Of a stretch of 64,000 bases of DNA, positions 7,861-53,819 are shown piece after piece. This stretch comes from an uncultured Acetatifactor sp. (GTDB taxonomy: Bacteria; Bacillota; Clostridia; Lachnospirales; Lachnospiraceae). The stretch is from positions 2,080 to 66,079 of the forward strand of contig CAJTMX010000005.1 of assembly GCA_910577235.1 (NCBI GenBank), written 5' to 3'. The first letter of the stretch is position 1, and each line of letters opens with the position of its first letter. Under the pieces are notes generated by a model. The model had not been told where the DNA came from, made no database searches, and saw nothing but the letters and a program-made list of their open reading frames with translations. The position numbers were made by a program, and so were the translations under genes.

Positions 7861-7992
7861 GCATTGTTTGCGAAACAGGCTCTGTGGGGATGAAAAATTG
7901 CTTGCAAAAAGCTTATAATGAGAATAAAATAAAATTTGTGTATAATCCGGAAGATTTGCACAGATTTTATTTTTTATTATCTTTTAGAGAAG

Positions 7993-8088
7993 GTTTGAAA
8001 CGAACGATTTCTTATTACCGAATTCATGCAGTTACAAAGACAAAGTATTAATGCATGGCGAGGTAGGTGAGAAGTGAACGTTTCAAAT
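7993..8088 (+). other. long imperfect inverted repeat (rod-like hairpin, about 96 nt)
   Basis: GTTTGAAACG (7993-8002) pairs with CGTTTCAAAT (8079-8088). Nested pairings are TTCTTATTACC/GGTAGGTGAGAA and CATGCA/TGCATG around a 21-nt loop. Confidence 0.35.
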
Positions 8089-8120
8089 ACTCATTGACGC
8101 GATACCAAGGACAAAGTTGA

Positions 8121-8215
8121 GATGATTTATCAAGCGTTAGATGATTTATCAAGCGTTAGATGATTTATCAAGCGTTAGATGATTTATCAACTGGTAGTTG
8201 ATTTATCAACTACAG
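8121..8215 (+). repeat. tandem array, five 19-bp units
   Basis: GATGATTTATCAAGCGTTA x3 (identical), GATGATTTATCAACTGGTA, GTTGATTTATCAACTACAG. The array runs directly into the conserved leader core. Confidence 0.92.
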
Positions 8216-8236
8216 GTATGCGGGAAAGAGGGGAAA
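8194..8236 (+). promoter_or_regulatory. conserved leader element copy 1 (hairpin + CTACAGGTATGCGGGA + SD)
   Basis: Hairpin GTAGTTGAT-TT-ATCAACTAC, invariant 16-mer at 8210-8225, then AAGAGGGG and ATG 8237. Confidence 0.75.
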
Positions 8237-9901
8237 ATGGACAAGCTCAAACCGAAGTTATTTTCTGTGATGAAGACCTATACCAGGGAGCAGTTTGTAA
8301 AGGATGTGGTGGCGGGTATTATCGTTGCCATCATTGCGCTGCCCCTGTCCATCGCTCTGGCGCTGGCCTCCGGTGTCACGCCGGAAAAGGGTATCTATAC
8401 CGCCATAACCGCGGGATTTGTGATTTCCTTTCTGGGAGGCAGCCGGGTGCAGATCGCAGGGCCTACTGCGGCCTTTGCCACTATAGTGGCGGGTATTGTG
8501 GCGAAGAACGGTATGGAAGGACTGATCATGGCCACCGTAATGGCGGGGATCATTTTGATCCTGATGGGCGTGCTGCGGCTGGGCAATCTGATCAAATTTA
8601 TCCCCTATACCATCACAACCGGTTTTACGGCCGGCATAGCCGTGACAATCTTTGTGGGGCAGATCAAGGATTTTCTGGGACTTGTCGTGGTCACGGAGGA
8701 ACCACTGATCGAAACCATGGAAAAGCTGGAGGCAGTGTTCCGTTTTATCGGCACGATAAACTGGCAGGCGGTCATCGTGGGCGTGGTGTGCATGGTGATC
8801 CTTATAGGCTGGCCTTTTTTGCCGGGGATCTGCAAGAAGATTCCGCCTTCCCTGATCGCAGTGCTGGCCGGTATCGCCATGGTAAAGGGCATTGGTATGA
8901 AAGTAGATACCATCGGAGATCTGTATGAGATATCCAATAAACTGCCTGGCATTTCCCTGCCTGCCTTTGATTTTAAGACCGTGCAGAATGTGCTGCCGGA
9001 TGCTTTTACCATCGCAATCCTGGCGGCCATAGAATCCCTGCTTTCCTGTGTGGTGGCGGACGGGATGATTGGCAGCAAGCACCGCTCTAACATGGAACTG
9101 ATCGCCCAGGGAGCGGGCAATATAACTTCCGCACTTTTCGGAGGCATCCCTGCTACCGGGGCCATTGCCCGTACTGCCGCCAATATAAAAAACGGAGGCC
9201 GTACCCCTATTGCGGGTATGGTCCATGCGGTGACGCTGCTGCTGATATTGGTGGTGCTGATGCCCTATGCGGCGCTGATCCCCATGCCCACCATCGCCGC
9301 CATCCTGTTTATGGTGGCCTACAATATGTCGGAATGGCGCAAATTTTTCTATCTGTGCAAAACATCTCCCAAGAGCGATATCATCGTGCTGGTGCTGACT
9401 TTTGTGCTGACCGTGGTATTTGATCTGGTAGTGGCTATCGTTGTCGGTATCGTGCTGGCCGCCATCCTGTTTATGAAACGGATGAGCGAAGTGACGGAAG
9501 TGGAGGGCTGGACCTACATAGACGAGGATGCGGAGAATGACAAGGACAGCATTGAACTGCGCCATGTGCCCAAACACACGCTGGTGTATGAGATGAGCGG
9601 TCCCCTGTTCTTCGGCGCTGCGGATAAGATTCTGGATATCCGCACGGATGATGCCGTTACCGCACTGATCCTGCGGATGCGGAGCGTCAGCGCCATCGAT
9701 GCCACTGCCATGCACAATCTGGAGACTCTGGCATCCACCTGTGAAAAGAAACAGATCCAACTGATCCTGTCCCATGTGAACGAGCAGCCCATGCGTGTCA
9801 TGCGGAAAGCCAGATTCGTGGAGAGGATAGGAGAGAGGTATTTCTGTAAGCATATCGACGATGCGCTGGCAATGGCGGAAGAACTTAATAAAAAGGCTTG
9901 A
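8237..9901 (+). CDS. SulP-family anion transporter with C-terminal STAS domain
   Basis: Multi-TM SulP core (GGIPATGAIARTAANIKNGGRTP) plus a STAS domain. Start set at ATG 8237 (MDKLKPKLF); the ORF track starts at a TTG at 8198. Confidence 0.92.
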   Translation: MDKLKPKLFSVMKTYTREQFVKDVVAGIIVAIIALPLSIALALASGVTPEKGIYTAITAGFVISFLGGSRVQIAGPTAAFATIVAGIVAKNGMEGLIMATVMAGIILILMGVLRLGNLIKFIPYTITTGFTAGIAVTIFVGQIKDFLGLVVVTEEPLIETMEKLEAVFRFIGTINWQAVIVGVVCMVILIGWPFLPGICKKIPPSLIAVLAGIAMVKGIGMKVDTIGDLYEISNKLPGISLPAFDFKTVQNVLPDAFTIAILAAIESLLSCVVADGMIGSKHRSNMELIAQGAGNITSALFGGIPATGAIARTAANIKNGGRTPIAGMVHAVTLLLILVVLMPYAALIPMPTIAAILFMVAYNMSEWRKFFYLCKTSPKSDIIVLVLTFVLTVVFDLVVAIVVGIVLAAILFMKRMSEVTEVEGWTYIDEDAENDKDSIELRHVPKHTLVYEMSGPLFFGAADKILDIRTDDAVTALILRMRSVSAIDATAMHNLETLASTCEKKQIQLILSHVNEQPMRVMRKARFVERIGERYFCKHIDDALAMAEELNKKA

Positions 9902-9902
9902 T

Positions 9903-10105
9903 ACGGCGGCTCTGGGAAATGGAAATGCTTAGAAATAGGTGTCAATGCCGGGAAATGGGCATGCAATGCTTGAAAATGAACGGAAAAACTGAGAAATGGG
10001 CGTGCAATGCCCGGAAATAAACAACAATGCCCGGAAATAAACAACAATGCGGGGAAACGAACGGAAATGCGGGGAAACGAACGGAAATGCCGGGAAATGA
10101 ACAGG
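9903..10105 (+). repeat. tandem array of about 10 units with 20-21-bp period, filling the sulP-metH spacer
   Basis: Units start AATGC: AATGCCCGGAAATAAACAAC x2 (10006-10045), AATGCGGGGAAACGAACGGA x2 (10046-10085), AATGCCGGGAAATGAACAGG (10086-10105), with more diverged units back to 9903. Confidence 0.9.
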
Positions 10106-10152: not shown

Positions 10153-12924
10153 ATGACGAAACAGCTGTTTAGAGATTTTTGCGCGAACCGCTTTATTATA
10201 CTGGACGGAGCTACCGGCTCCAATCTGATCAAAAGGGGTATGCCCTCCGGAGTGTGCCCGGAGCAGTGGATATTGGAGCATCCACAGGCGCTGGTGGAGC
10301 TACAGAGGGACTATGTGGCGGCGGGCACAAATATTCTGTATGCCCCCACATTTACTGCAAACCGTATCAAACTGGAGGAATACGGTCTGGCTGACCGGCA
10401 GGAAGAGATGATATACAGTTTGGTAGCTCTGTCCCGGCAGGCGGCCGGAAGAAGTGCTGCCGGAGGACAGAGCGGGGAAGGACAGACTGCGGGAGATAAC
10501 ATAACGTTTATCGCCGCTGATAAGGCGGCGGGAACAGCTGAGGATCGGGAGCGTGTGCTGGTGGCAGGGGATCTGACGATGACGGGACAGCAGCTGCGGC
10601 CCATGGGCACGATGGAGCTGGAGACTTTGATCGAAGTATATAAAGAACAGATCCGGGTCATGGAGAGCGCCGGGGTGGATCTGTTGGTGGTGGAGACTAT
10701 GATGAGCCTGGGTGAGACACGGGCGGCACTGATAGCGGCCCGGGAGACCACAGAGCTGCCGGTGATGGTGACCATGACCTTTGAGGCGGACGGACGTACC
10801 CTGTTTGGCACGGACGCGGAGACAGCAGCCATAGTGTTGGAGAGCCTGGGTGCTGACGCCATAGGTGTGAACTGTTCCACGGGACCGGCGAAAATGAAGG
10901 GAATCGTGGAGGCTATGGCCCGTGTCAGCAGTTTGCCCCTGATCGCCAAACCAAACGCGGGATTGCCTGCGGTAAATGAGCAGGGACAGACGGTTTATGA
11001 TATGGACAGCGATACCTTTACGGCGGAGATGGAGGAACTGGCAGATGCGGGAGCCGTGATCCTGGGAGGATGCTGCGGCACAGACCCCTGCTATATCGCG
11101 GGTCTGAAACGCATGACACAGGGGAAAAAGCCCAGGGAGCGGAAAGGGCGGCCTGACGGTATCCGTTATCTGACAGGTGAGCGGAAGACGCTGGTTTTTG
11201 GTCTGGAAGATCCCTTTATGATCATCGGGGAGCGGATCAATCCAACCGGCAAGAAAAAGCTGCAGGAGCAGTTGAGAAACGGCAATATGGACCTGGTGCT
11301 GCAATATGCTCAGGAGCAGGACGCCTGCGGAGCATCCGTACTGGATATCAATATGGGCATGAGCGGCATTGACGAGAAAGCCATGATGCTGCGGGTGCTG
11401 GAGGAGGTACAGGGGATTACGGATCTGCCTCTGTCTCTGGATTCCAGCCATGTGGAGGTGCTGGAGGCGGCGCTGCGCCATTACCCCGGACGGGCGCTGG
11501 TCAACTCCGTGTCCTATGAGACGGAGAAGTTTGAAAAACTGTTGCCCATCGTGCAGAAATACGGGGCTATGTTCATTTTGCTGCCCCTGTCCGACAAGGG
11601 ACTGCCCGAAAATCTGGAGGAGAAAAAACAGATCATAGACTGCATCGTGACCCGGGCGCAGGAGCTGGGGATGCGCAGGGAAGATATCATAGTGGATGGT
11701 CTGGTGACAACCATAGGTGCAAACAAACAGGCGGCGCTGGAGACATTGGAGACGATACGCTACTGTAAGGCTCAGGGACTGGCTACTGTCTGCGGGCTGT
11801 CCAATATCTCTTTCGGTATGCCTGCCAGACCTTATGTGAATACAGCCTTTTTGACGCTGGCAATATATGAAGGACTGACCATGGCAATCGCCAATCCCTC
11901 TCAGGAAATGCTGGTCTGCGGGGCTTTGGCCACGGATATGTTGAAGGTTAGAAAAGACGCCGATCTGCGGTATATTGAGTATGCCGCGCAGTTACAGCCG
12001 GTGACAGCCGCTGCCGGGCCGGGCAATTCCGGCGCGGCGGCAGGTATAGGCCGGAGTGATCCTCAAGCGGTATCAGGTGCAGGCCAGGGAAATCCCGGCA
12101 CAATGTTAGGTGCAGGCCAGGGAAATCCCGGCACAGCGTCAGGTGCAGGCCAGGGAAATCCCGGCACAGCGTCAGGTGCAGGCCAAGGCAATTCGGGCGC
12201 GGCGGCAGGTATAGACCGGAGTGATCCCCGAGCGGCGTCAGGCTTTGGGCAGAACGGCGGGGCCGCCAGAGCGCCGCAGACGTATGCCCAGAAGATCACG
12301 GACGCCGTGCTAAAGGGCAACCGCAGCGGTATCGCGGCCATGACAAGGGAGGCGGTGGCGGCGGGAGAAGATCCCGGTACACTGCTTAACGACAGTCTGC
12401 TGCCTGCAATCAATAAAGTGGGGGATCTGTTTGAGAAAAAGAAATATTTTTTACCCCAGCTGATCGCCAGCGCCGAGGCCATGAAGAACGCCATTGAAGT
12501 GTTGGAGCCCTATCTGCTGAAGAAACAGGACGGAGATTCCATGCCGGTGGTTGTCATTGCCACCGTGGAGGGGGATATCCATGATATCGGTAAGAACCTG
12601 GTGGCACTTATGCTGAAAAACTATGGGTTCAAAGTGATAGATCTGGGTAAGGATGTGCCCAAGGAAACCATTGTGCAGGCGGCGAAGGAGCATCATGCGG
12701 ACATCATCGCCCTGTCTGCGCTGATGACCACTACGATGCAGCGGATGCGGGAAGTGGTAGCCCTGGCACGGCAGGAGGGCGTGACAGCCAGGATCATGGT
12801 GGGAGGAGCGGTGATCACCCAGGAGTACGCGGATGAGATTCATGCGGACGGATATTCCAAAGACGCGGCGGAGGCGGTGAAACTTGCCCGGCGACTGCTG
12901 GGCATGATGAGCGCGGACATGTAG
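10153..12924 (+). CDS. metH: cobalamin-dependent methionine synthase (Hcy-methyltransferase + pterin-binding + B12-binding; no AdoMet reactivation domain seen)
   Basis: Contains GVNCSTGP and GGCCGTDP (Zn-ligand cysteines), ERINPTGKKK pterin domain and the B12 motif GDIHDIGKN. ATG 10153 follows GAGGAAAGAG. Confidence 0.92.
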   Translation: MTKQLFRDFCANRFIILDGATGSNLIKRGMPSGVCPEQWILEHPQALVELQRDYVAAGTNILYAPTFTANRIKLEEYGLADRQEEMIYSLVALSRQAAGRSAAGGQSGEGQTAGDNITFIAADKAAGTAEDRERVLVAGDLTMTGQQLRPMGTMELETLIEVYKEQIRVMESAGVDLLVVETMMSLGETRAALIAARETTELPVMVTMTFEADGRTLFGTDAETAAIVLESLGADAIGVNCSTGPAKMKGIVEAMARVSSLPLIAKPNAGLPAVNEQGQTVYDMDSDTFTAEMEELADAGAVILGGCCGTDPCYIAGLKRMTQGKKPRERKGRPDGIRYLTGERKTLVFGLEDPFMIIGERINPTGKKKLQEQLRNGNMDLVLQYAQEQDACGASVLDINMGMSGIDEKAMMLRVLEEVQGITDLPLSLDSSHVEVLEAALRHYPGRALVNSVSYETEKFEKLLPIVQKYGAMFILLPLSDKGLPENLEEKKQIIDCIVTRAQELGMRREDIIVDGLVTTIGANKQAALETLETIRYCKAQGLATVCGLSNISFGMPARPYVNTAFLTLAIYEGLTMAIANPSQEMLVCGALATDMLKVRKDADLRYIEYAAQLQPVTAAAGPGNSGAAAGIGRSDPQAVSGAGQGNPGTMLGAGQGNPGTASGAGQGNPGTASGAGQGNSGAAAGIDRSDPRAASGFGQNGGAARAPQTYAQKITDAVLKGNRSGIAAMTREAVAAGEDPGTLLNDSLLPAINKVGDLFEKKKYFLPQLIASAEAMKNAIEVLEPYLLKKQDGDSMPVVVIATVEGDIHDIGKNLVALMLKNYGFKVIDLGKDVPKETIVQAAKEHHADIIALSALMTTTMQRMREVVALARQEGVTARIMVGGAVITQEYADEIHADGYSKDAAEAVKLARRLLGMMSADM
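12076..12207 (+). repeat. in-frame 33-bp tandem repeat inside the metH linker
   Basis: GGTGCAGGCCAGGGAAATCCCGGCACAGCGTCA occurs about 4 times (12076, 12109, 12142, 12175) and encodes GAGQGNPGTAS repeats. It is flanked by a second repeated pair (GNSGAAAGI(G/D)RSDP). Confidence 0.88.
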
Positions 12925-16216: not shown

Positions 16217-16282
16217 GCAACGGTGGCGTTGGACGCGGCATCATTGCCCATGTGGAGAACTATTTATTGGAGCCGTACCGCA

Positions 16283-16322
16283 AGTTGACTTGTCAACTAC
16301 AGGTATGCGGGAAGAGGTAATT
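16283..16322 (+). promoter_or_regulatory. conserved leader element copy 2 (intercistronic, ilvB-ilvN)
   Basis: Hairpin AGTTGAC-TT-GTCAACT, invariant 16-mer at 16297-16312, then AGAGG and ATG 16323. Confidence 0.75.
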
Positions 16323-16814
16323 ATGAAAAAGAGAATTTATTCTGTGCTGGTGGAGAACCGCTCCGGCGTGCTGGGCAAGGTGGCCGGGCTCTTTGCCAGA
16401 AGATGCTTTAATATTGACTCTCTGACGGTGGGAGAGACCGATGACCCGGAGATATCCTGTATGACCATAGTGAGCAGCGGGGATGAGCGCACCATCGAGC
16501 AGATTGAAAAGCAGCTGAACAAAAAGCTGGATGTGATCAAGGTCAAGACTTTCGACGAGAGCCAGAGCGTCAGCCGGGAGCTGATGCTGGTGAAGGTGCG
16601 CCACAACAAGGGAAACCGAAGGGAGATCACGGAGGTATGTGAGATCCTGCGGGCGGAGATTGTGGATATGTCCAAACATTTCATGATGATCCAGATCTGC
16701 GATACTCCGGACAGAACCAAACTGCTGCTGACCATGCTCCAGTCCATCAGCATAGCGGAAGTGGCCCGCACAGGGACTCTGGCGCTGGCAAAATGCAGCG
16801 AGAATGATGATTAG
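16323..16814 (+). CDS. ilvN: acetolactate synthase small (regulatory) subunit, ACT domain
   Basis: MKKRIYSVLVENRSGVLGKVAGLFARRCFNIDSLTV is a typical AHAS small-subunit N-terminus. Confidence 0.88.
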   Translation: MKKRIYSVLVENRSGVLGKVAGLFARRCFNIDSLTVGETDDPEISCMTIVSSGDERTIEQIEKQLNKKLDVIKVKTFDESQSVSRELMLVKVRHNKGNRREITEVCEILRAEIVDMSKHFMMIQICDTPDRTKLLLTMLQSISIAEVARTGTLALAKCSENDD

Positions 16815-51592: not shown

Positions 51593-51804
51593 TGTGCTTG
51601 CAGGATTTCCTGCATATATAAATATACTGGCGCAAGGAATAGTAGTTTTCCCTTTCCCTGACACAAAATGTATGTTATAATATGTGTGGATAAAAAACGG
51701 TAAATGACTGAAAAAATGCACAATTTGACAGAGAAGAGAGAAATTTGGATGTCGTGCATTCAAATTTGATCTTTGCTATATTGTAGATGTGGCAATACTT
51801 GGCT

Positions 51805-51861
51805 TGTAAATTTGTAGCTGATTTGTAAATTTGTAGCTGATTTGGCAACTTGTAGTTGATT
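51805..51861 (+). repeat. tandem array, three 19-bp units
   Basis: TGTAAATTTGTAGCTGATT x2 and TGGCAACTTGTAGTTGATT, running directly into leader element copy 3. Confidence 0.88.
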
Positions 51862-51890
51862 AGACGGCTACAGGTATGCGGGAGGATATT
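51852..51890 (+). promoter_or_regulatory. conserved leader element copy 3
   Basis: Hairpin GTAGTTG-ATTAGA-CGGCTAC (two G-U pairs), invariant 16-mer at 51868-51883, then GGA and ATG 51891. Confidence 0.75.
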
Positions 51891-53819
51891 ATGGCAAAAG
51901 CAAATAATTACGGAGCAGACAGTATAACGGTGTTGGAGGGACTGGAGGCGGTGCGCAAGCGTCCGGGCATGTATATTGGCAGTGTGTCCACCAAGGGCCT
52001 GAACCATCTGATCTATGAGATCGTGGACAATTCCGTGGACGAACATCTGGCGGGGTATTGCGATACGATCAATGTGACTTTGGAGGCGGACGGCTCCGCC
52101 ACCGTCAGCGATAACGGAAGAGGTATTCCGGTGGGGATGCATGAGAAAGGTATCAGCGCCGAGCGGTTGGTATTTACCACGCTGCACGCAGGAGGAAAAT
52201 TCGACAACAACGCCTACAAGACCAGCGGCGGACTGCACGGCGTGGGTTCCTCGGTGGTCAACGCTCTGTCCAACAGGCTGACCGTCACCGTCAAGGTGGG
52301 AGGTTGTGTCTATCAGGATCAATATGAAAAGGGTCTTCCGGTGACAGAGCTGGAGAACGGTCTGTTGCCGATCATAGGCAAGACCAGAGAAACGGGAACC
52401 ACGATCAACTTCTTGCCGGACGATACGATCTTTGACAAGACCCGTTTTAAGGAGGATGAGGTAAAGAGCCGCCTCCATGAGACAGCTTATCTGAATCCGG
52501 AACTGACCATCGTATTTGAGGACAAGCGAAAAGAGGAGCCGGAGCGCATCGTCTTCCATGAACCGGAGGGGATCACGGGATTTATACGGGACATGAACAA
52601 GGGGGACGAACCGGTTCATGAATGTATTTATTTCAAGGGGGAGGCAGAGGACATTGTAGTGGAAGTGGCTTTCCAGTATGTGAACGAGTTTCATGAGAAT
52701 GTGCTGGGATTCTGTAACAATATCTACAACTCTGAGGGAGGCACGCATCTGACGGGTTTCAAGACACAATTTACCAATGTGATCAATACTTATGCCCGGG
52801 AACTGGGTATCCTCAAGGAAAAGGATGTGAATTTTACCGGCGCGGATGTGCGCAACGGTATGACGGCGGTGGTGTCTATCAAGCATCCCGATCCCCGTTT
52901 TGAAGGACAGACCAAGACCAAGCTGGACAATCAGGACGCGGCCAAGGTGGTGGCCAAGATCACCGGGGAGGAGATCGTCCATTATTTTGACCGTAATCTG
53001 GAAGTGCTGAAGAATATCATCGGCTGTGCCGAGAAGGCGGCCAAGATCCGCAAGACGGAGGAGAAGGCAAGGACCAATATGCTGACCAAGCAGAAGTTTT
53101 CCTTTGATTCCAACGGGAAACTGGCTAACTGCGAGTCCAAGGACCCTTCCAGATGCGAGATATTCATTGTGGAGGGCGACTCTGCGGGAGGCAGTGCCAA
53201 GACGGCCCGGGACCGCAGCTTTCAGGCGATACTGCCAATCCGGGGCAAGATTCTGAATGTGGAGAAAGCCAGCATCGATAAGGTACTTGCCAACGCGGAG
53301 ATCAAGACCATGATCAACGCTTTCGGATGTGGATTTTCGGAGGGGTACGGTAACGATTTTGATATTTCCAAGCTGCGCTATGACAAGATCATTATTATGA
53401 CGGATGCGGATGTGGACGGTTCCCATATCTCCATGTTGCTGCTGACGCTGTTTTACCGTTTTATGCCGGAGCTGATCTATGAGGGGCATGTGTATCTGGC
53501 TATGCCGCCGCTGTACAAGGCTATGCCTTCCAAGGGGAAGGAAGAGTATCTTTATGACGACAAGGCTTTGGAGAGGTATCGCAAGAGCCATAAGGGGCCT
53601 TTTACGTTGCAGAGATACAAGGGACTGGGGGAGATGGATGCCCAACAGCTGTGGGAGACTACGCTGGACCCGGCTACGCGGATGATGAAGCGGGTGGAGA
53701 TCGAGGACGCCAGGTTGGCCACGGATCTTACCAGCACGCTGATGGGGACGGATGTTCCGCCCCGGAAGGCGTTTATTTATGAGCATGCTACGGATGCGGA
53801 GCTGGATTATAATGCTTGA
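51891..53819 (+). CDS. type IIA topoisomerase B subunit (GyrB/ParE family)
   Basis: [31 protein letters not shown] and [10 protein letters not shown] motifs. Whether it is GyrB or ParE cannot be decided from this gene alone. Confidence 0.93.

Follow-up and report, generated by a model that had tools for sequence, protein, structure and literature searches.

The sulP leader and its tandem array

The 64,000-nucleotide stretch of uncultured Acetatifactor DNA analyzed here (the window) carries a SulP permease gene (ATG at 8237, stop at 9901; the product has a Sulfate_transp and a STAS domain), flanked by a solute-binding-protein gene upstream and by metH downstream, and the leader of this gene contains five 19-bp units arranged head-to-tail at 8121–8215. 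A consensus scan predicts a sigma-70-type promoter whose TTGCAA-N17-TAxxAT arrangement is kept 5′ of sulP orthologues in many Lachnospiraceae, and because this conserved predicted promoter sits at 7902–7930 we assign the array to a ~300-nt sulP 5′ UTR, in which it would begin and end ~190–285 nt from the 5′ end. The leader has the following features:

7902–7930, + strand: predicted sigma-70-type sulP promoter (TTGCAA, 17 nt, TAAAAT), from the consensus scan
7926–7986, + strand: AT-rich inverted repeat with 15-nt arms, then a T-run, directly after the promoter (repeat search, I4)
8022–8046, + strand: older, diverged copy of the P1 5′ arm and joining segment, at a 71-nt offset and 72% identical to 8093–8117 (repeat D8)
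8098–8106, + strand: P1 5′ arm, CGCGATACC, pairing with 8215–8222 in the MFE structure and ensemble of all alleles
8107–8120, + strand: joining segment J, AAGGACAAAGTTGA, homologous to GCAGGCAAAGCC and GCAGACAAGGCC in other copies of the element
8121–8177, + strand: array A units, three identical copies of GATGATTTATCAAGCGTTA, the most recently amplified part
8178–8196, + strand: array unit B, GATGATTTATCAACTGGTA
8197–8215: array unit C, the last unit, GTTGATTTATCAACTACAG, overlapping P2
8194–8213, + strand: P2 hairpin, GTAGTTGAT-TT-ATCAACTAC, 9 bp
8210–8225, + strand: conserved 16-mer CTACAGGTATGCGGGA, containing the P1 3′ arm GGTATGCG (8215–8222)
8222–8239, + strand: purine-rich Shine-Dalgarno region GGGAAAGAGGGG and the sulP start codon (8237), from sequence, ORF and Pfam

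The five-unit parse proposed in an earlier, sequence-only reading is borne out in register and by Tandem Repeats Finder, which delimits the array at 8120–8209 (period 19, 4.7 copies, 94% matches, score 152), and a separate repeat search of the window recovers the same array (families D1/D4). Three identical 19-mers in tandem cannot be explained by chance. Each unit comprises the entire P2 stem-loop and a 5-nt spacer (arm, TT, arm, spacer), the P2 hairpin at 8194–8213 is the template of the 19-nt unit, and the whole array sits within the loop closed by predicted helix P1. The earlier proposal that the array was built from a conserved leader by repeated duplication of that leader's hairpin stands, as does its observation that the upstream units are more degenerate, but the duplicated segment is the whole of P2 with its spacer and not the 5′ arm only. 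A 10-bp mini-palindrome, TGATTTATCA, has exactly five occurrences in the 64-kb window, all inside the array, and is perfectly conserved in every unit of every strain, an invariance that could reflect selection instead of recency. The array also contains a 13-codon ORF (MIYQALDDLSSVR, then a stop) that had been judged non-coding, and we agree: the ORF has no gene-like feature. The period of 19 is not a multiple of 3.

Duplication elsewhere in the leader is older. A ~120-nt stretch at ~7980–8097, which holds the diverged copy at 8022–8046, is absent in the sister lineage described below, and by its repeat structure the sulP leader appears to have been enlarged by duplications at several scales. 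The AT-rich inverted repeat at 7926–7986 is separate from the array and has an equivalent hairpin and T-run in orthologous sulP leaders, in some Lachnospiraceae species as a strong GC-rich terminator-like stem; this post-promoter structure may be an attenuator or an operator.

Copy number among strains and in the sister lineage

The sequence-only reading had proposed comparing unit copy number among strains, and this comparison reveals length polymorphism, with four, five or six units in contigs that all encode an identical SulP protein. The four alleles are:

Window: A A A B C
L045 and L046: A A A B B′ C, with an extra B′ unit
L047: A A B C
L048: A′ A′ A′ C*, with no unit B and a last unit that no longer forms a perfect P2

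Over 7,665 bp, L047 differs from the window by 0 substitutions yet has one unit fewer, and L046 differs by 1 substitution yet has one unit more. Since strains separated by 0–1 SNP differ by one unit, the rate of length change in the array greatly exceeds the substitution rate. L048 is more distant (68 substitutions from the window) and carries a re-homogenized four-unit array with the same T-to-G change in all three A units. Rapid length change together with concerted evolution of the units, as read from these alleles, is what slippage or unequal exchange would leave. The strain arrays come from short-read assemblies, in which repeats can in principle be mis-sized, but at 76–114 bp the array is shorter than a typical read and independent assemblies agree within alleles. 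With head-to-tail units of at least 10 bp and a copy number that is polymorphic within the species, the sulP array is a VNTR, or minisatellite.

The origin of the array is visible in a sister lineage (L226–L233/L410, for example Acetatifactor sp. SRP287540_co1_466, L410), in which SulP is 96% identical in amino acids and the sulP coding sequence 89.5% identical in nucleotides. Its sulP leader retains the promoter, the AT-rich hairpin, the P1 arms and the core, and has one unit and no array. This single degenerate unit, which in context reads ACATACC GCAGACAAGGCC ATAGTTGATTTGCCGAATG CAGGTATGCGGGAG, retains only half of TGATTTATCA, and in more distant relatives the sulP Shine-Dalgarno sequence is preceded either by a different short hairpin or by no such structure. 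Absence of the array from relatives that keep the leader core had been put forward as a sign of neutral slippage, and the sister lineage presents exactly this state. Because the sister lineage shows the single-unit condition, we conclude that the sulP array grew in place.

The leader element at other genes

The array is housed in a leader element of ~60–70 nt with the order P1 5′ arm, J, P2, the 16-mer CTACAGGTATGCGGGA with the P1 3′ arm, Shine-Dalgarno sequence and ATG. The 16-mer has exactly three copies in the window against 0.41 expected at up to 3 mismatches, located before sulP, in the ilvB–ilvN spacer (16297–16312) and before a gyrB/parE-type gene (51868–51883), and each has an upstream segment complementary to GGTATGC(G) that forms the closing helix P1. 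Two of the three carry 19-bp arrays, and an array of 20-bp period lies in the metH leader:

16263–16328, + strand: second element copy, in the ilvB–ilvN spacer; P1 16273–16279 / 16302–16310, P2 16283–16298, no array
51792–51893, + strand: third element copy, before the gyrB/parE-type gene; P1 5′ arm 51792–51800, P2 51852–51871, 16-mer 51868–51883
51804–51861, + strand: gyrB 19-bp array, three units, TTGTAAATTTGTAGCTGAT, ahead of the 16-mer core
9943–10103, + strand: metH-leader array, period 20 bp, about five units AATGC[C/G]GGGAAA..., plus a 41-bp duplication from 9924

Further copies were sought by pattern scans, nhmmer and a covariance model (R2), the latter two built on an alignment (A2), used for model building only, that includes two sequences from which array units had been removed by hand. 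In the genome-collection scans, true copies outside the window occur only in Acetatifactor-clade MAGs, and we count ten copies in five genomes of this clade: the sulP, ilvN and gyrB copies of the window, the sister-lineage sulP copy, two copies each in L019 and L406, and one each in L033 and L049. L019 (GCA_014804645.1) is a close relative with a 97.7% identical GyrB and has both copies in a van-like cluster, one ahead of an acyltransferase gene and the other ahead of an alanine racemase gene. L406 (Acetatifactor sp. MGBC122974) has one copy before a GGDEF/EAL gene and one after topB; the L033 copy lies between apparent tagG- and tagH-type ABC transporter genes, as judged by translations; and a divergent version precedes sulP in L049/L234 (E about 1e-4). 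The second copies of L019 and L406 were recovered though in neither model, by nhmmer (E = 7.6e-8 and 2e-5) and by the covariance model. The van-like cluster of L019 (4576–5756) consists of ddl, a vanY-type carboxypeptidase, an acyltransferase and an alanine/serine racemase, and the latter two genes have an element copy between them; in VanT, acyltransferase and racemase parts are fused.

All ten copies are in sense orientation relative to the flanking genes and directly before a start codon, which lies 7–13 nt past the GC of the core in the nine copies measured. The genes that follow are functionally unrelated (sulP, ilvN, gyrB, acyltransferase, racemase, tagH-like and GGDEF/EAL), and the copies number three in the 64-kb window and two in each of two 8-kb loci of relatives. 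P1 is preserved in 8/8 copies tabulated and has undergone a double compensatory change between the two L019 copies, from GCAATACC/GGTATGC in the first to GCAATATC/GATATGC in the second (ATACC/GGTAT to ATATC/GATAT), while the L406 first copy and the gyrB copy use G-U pairs. P2 is preserved in 9/10 allele sequences tabulated, with variants GAT/ATC, GAC/GTC and GGC/GCC, and compensatory P2 variants occur in the ilvN, gyrB, L019, L406 and L033 copies. The CAA-to-CGG change in P2 of the window gyrB copy pairs only via U-G wobbles, which favors structure at the RNA level. From its anatomy, the element would be a cis-acting RNA structure beside the ribosome-binding site. Rfam 15 has no match in the window at the gathering threshold, and at E ≤ 10 the regions around the three window copies and the L019 copies return noise only. 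A leader peptide starting from the ATG in GGTATGC was considered and rejected, as its frame relative to the genes is inconsistent.

Searches for the element beyond the clade returned chance or coding matches. By blastn, plasmid and phage collections yielded chance fragments of the core only; viral contigs yielded 0 matches to the core and 63 to the J-region pattern, all within unrelated, apparently coding phage sequence; and JGI metagenomes, a collection from which the species is absent, yielded 5 chance matches to the core. Scans of genome collections with the 16-mer and a relaxed core gave mostly chance or coding matches besides the Acetatifactor-clade copies. A match in Faecousia was rejected as lying in an apparently coding region, and the only match to a transposase, of IS110 type (L316, Lachnospiraceae A4), is a coding-sequence coincidence on the opposite strand.

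The gyrB and ilvN copies bear on how the element reached its sites. The gyrB array varies among strains, with 2, 3 or 5 units, and relatives with 96–98.6% GyrB identity have the same gyrB promoter and neither element nor array. In the ilvB–ilvN spacer, the window has 106 nt including an element copy (16217–16322), and contigs L139 and L143, which probably belong to the sister lineage, encode an identical IlvN protein, are diverged in nucleotide sequence and have a 22-nt spacer without the element, so that the two states form a filled and empty site pair. (Next after ilvN comes another small-subunit gene with an ACT domain.) In our own alignment, sulP and gyrB units are alike at 12/19 positions, and the two arrays have in common a junction, CAACT(G/T)GTAGTTGATT, that exists only once two units stand in tandem. 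Occupation of non-homologous sites, the empty ilvN and gyrB sites in such close relatives and the shared tandem-only junction are what one would expect if the array were part of a BOX- or MITE-like element, small, mobile and interspersed, that had brought it ready-made into the sulP and gyrB leaders. We judge this improbable. The single-unit sulP leader of the sister lineage indicates growth of the array in place, and the gyrB units lying upstream look like the native leader sequence at gyrB in the 98.6%-identical relative (GTAAATTGTATAGC); moreover, apart from P1 we see no terminal inverted repeats, nor do we see target duplications or an accompanying transposase, and we find no copy outside the Acetatifactor clade or in the phage, plasmid and viral collections. 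Identification as a MITE was rejected on the absence of target duplications, as an IS200/IS605 TTGAT target on inconsistent flanks, and as an integron attC site on the absence of R′/R″ motifs.

The metH-leader array is an expansion of the inner part of a hairpin, GGCGT[GCAA]TACC ... GGTAACGCC, for which the sister lineage has a single unit. In L048 the array is re-homogenized into 7–8 near-identical units and has lost the 5′ closing arm. Its units are unrelated in sequence to those of sulP and gyrB, and the feature common to all three arrays is position within a leader hairpin. The metH leader has, by our own count, about 13 GGA motifs in 250 nt. Within the metH coding sequence, at 12073–12242, 33-bp units repeated in tandem and in frame encode an 11-aa repeat between the pterin- and B12-binding regions, and L045 MetH has one 11-aa unit fewer (912 aa vs 923 aa).

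These comparisons weigh on the proposal that the units are DNA-binding sites, iteron- or operator-like, that present TGATTTATCA every 19 bp to a factor controlling sulP or to an initiator. The palindrome is intact in each unit of all strains and the 19-bp spacing is near two helical turns, in favor of this proposal. However, the sister unit has half of the palindrome, which is found nowhere else in the window and which we take to be no Fur, CRP, CcpA or DnaA box; the array lies ~190–285 bp downstream of the conserved promoter and not over it; its neighbors (the solute-binding-protein gene, sulP and metH) offer no replication gene or origin context; site number differs among near-clonal strains; and no plasmid or phage relative appears in the collections searched. 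The gyrB and metH arrays share the layout and differ in sequence, and because unit sequences differ, one DNA-binding protein for all arrays is implausible. We therefore consider DNA binding very improbable and set aside the iteron reading that had been offered earlier for the same array. Three motif assignments were also rejected: CsrA sites, as the sulP and gyrB units are without GGA; TRAP/HutP triplets, for wrong spacing; and a sigma-54 promoter in the gyrB unit, likewise for wrong spacing.

Predicted folding, likely origin and known repeat systems

ViennaRNA predictions for the sulP leader give a fold far more stable than shuffled controls (z = −6.6), in which the array units pair mutually to give one long, imperfect hairpin that grows or shrinks with unit number. 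P1 is closed with a probability of ~1.0 (0.65–1.0 for its individual pairs) and the Shine-Dalgarno region is unpaired with a mean probability of 0.39, and both are the same for the 4-, 5- and 6-unit alleles. In these models the array thus looks structurally insulated from P1 and the ribosome-binding site. The sequence-only reading had noted that GTTGAT can pair with either neighboring ATCAAC and had seen in this a switch-like geometry. The alternative pairing is real, but tandem copies of an inverted repeat give mutually exclusive hairpins automatically, and the switch finds no support in the predicted folds, where P1 and access to the Shine-Dalgarno sequence are unchanged across alleles. In the predicted folds of the sulP leader we found no terminator after P2 and no anti-Shine-Dalgarno partner that depends on alternative pairing, and the leader thus shows none of the alternative structures of a riboswitch there.

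Together, these data suggest that the sulP array is probably a hypermutable minisatellite in a 5′ leader, made by slippage duplications of P2 and tolerated by virtue of insulation by P1. Slipped-strand mispairing or unequal recombination would duplicate or delete the 19-nt module of P2 and 5-nt spacer, a process that the quasi-palindromic TGATTTATCA should favor by forming hairpins in single-stranded DNA. The module would lie inside the P1-closed loop of a transcript that runs through the array, where the units would pair with themselves and leave the P1 3′ arm, CTACAGGTATGC, undisturbed. Length polymorphism would be tolerated because unit gain or loss leaves P1 and the ribosome-binding site undisturbed, and judging from equilibrium folding a change in array length is probably near neutral. 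A count of two, perhaps even three, such leader arrays within 64 kb is nonetheless high for pure chance, and a mechanism peculiar to this lineage, or selection favoring variable length, may contribute.

A regulatory role is the main competitor of the minisatellite reading, and we regard it as possible yet unlikely. The array would then be a cis-acting RNA tuning device in which unit number alters mRNA processing or stability, making a contingency locus of sulP (and gyrB), for example if a longer self-paired duplex were a better RNase III substrate or if arm pairings competed with P2 or P1. Several observations fit: the array most likely lies within the transcript, given a promoter that is kept in orthologues, the imperfect hairpin lengthens with unit number, the array mutates at a very high rate, the same device recurs at gyrB, and GTTGAT has two possible partners. 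Against such tuning, predicted P1 closure and Shine-Dalgarno access stay constant over unit numbers, the sister lineage and other relatives manage without an array, loss of the closing arm from the L048 metH array indicates that the architecture is not conserved, and no terminator or anti-Shine-Dalgarno element is involved. An extension of this idea to the element as a whole is likewise possible yet unlikely: the element would be an undescribed family of structured Acetatifactor elements spread among unrelated genes (sulP, ilvN, gyrB, van-like and cell-envelope genes), with a hypermutable module that makes each copy a tuning knob.

Among described systems, the pneumococcal BOX element (boxA-boxB(n)-boxC) appears to be the closest analogue. 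The number of tandem boxB modules varies among strains, and boxB folds independently of the paired boxA and boxC ends (Croucher et al. 2011, PMC3049150). Like BOX, the Acetatifactor element is a composite, dispersed element in probably transcribed intergenic DNA with paired ends and a strain-variable internal module that folds alone, which leaves the overall structure intact when copies are added, and it has the same modular A-B(n)-C organization in the form of P1 5′ arm/J, (P2 unit)n and core, with n varying at sulP and gyrB. The two differ in size, as boxB is about 45 nt and the Acetatifactor unit 19 nt in a much smaller element of about 60–70 nt, and no relationship in sequence is apparent by eye. 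The Acetatifactor element is further distinguished by its ten copies so far in one genus-level clade, with no IS link found, and by the sense orientation of every copy and its abutment on a Shine-Dalgarno sequence and start codon.

Other repeat classes resemble the array in part. Mycobacterial MIRUs, and bacterial VNTRs more broadly, are likewise head-to-tail repeats of tens of bp in intergenic or intercistronic parts of operons, made by slippage and polymorphic among close strains; MIRU units are 40–100 bp with small ORFs overlapping the flanking genes, whereas the sulP array has a period that is not a multiple of 3 and a unit that is an RNA/DNA hairpin enclosed by a larger helix. Plasmid iterons are 17–22-bp direct repeats that flank a rep gene or origin as conserved binding sites, and the sulP array resembles them as direct repeats at regular spacing, but it lies in a predicted chromosomal 5′ UTR, varies in number near-clonally and is missing from the sister lineage. 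REP/BIME, ERIC and Correia elements are likewise short intergenic palindromes; they are transcribed, fold into stem-loops and can affect how an mRNA is processed or how stable it is. At its foot P2 reads GTAG...CTAC, which recalls the REP GTAG; the Acetatifactor copies differ in being single, sense-oriented and tied to translation starts, with no inverted pairs or 3′-end bias seen.

The sulP array is a clean natural case of a tandem-repeat indel rate vastly higher than the point-mutation rate, and a useful strain-typing marker for uncultured mouse-gut Acetatifactor. It suggests that a leader loop closed by a helix can take up added repeats and leave the ribosome-binding site unaffected, as the predicted folds indicate. 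The host of the array is more interesting than the array itself, as a conserved, structured, start-codon-proximal module that is absent from Rfam and stands before unrelated genes. If each copy of this element were indeed a tuning knob, every one would be a built-in 5′ UTR contingency locus, even at housekeeping genes, and if copy number affected expression, phase-variation-like tuning would reach core genes through hairpin modules in their 5′ UTRs.
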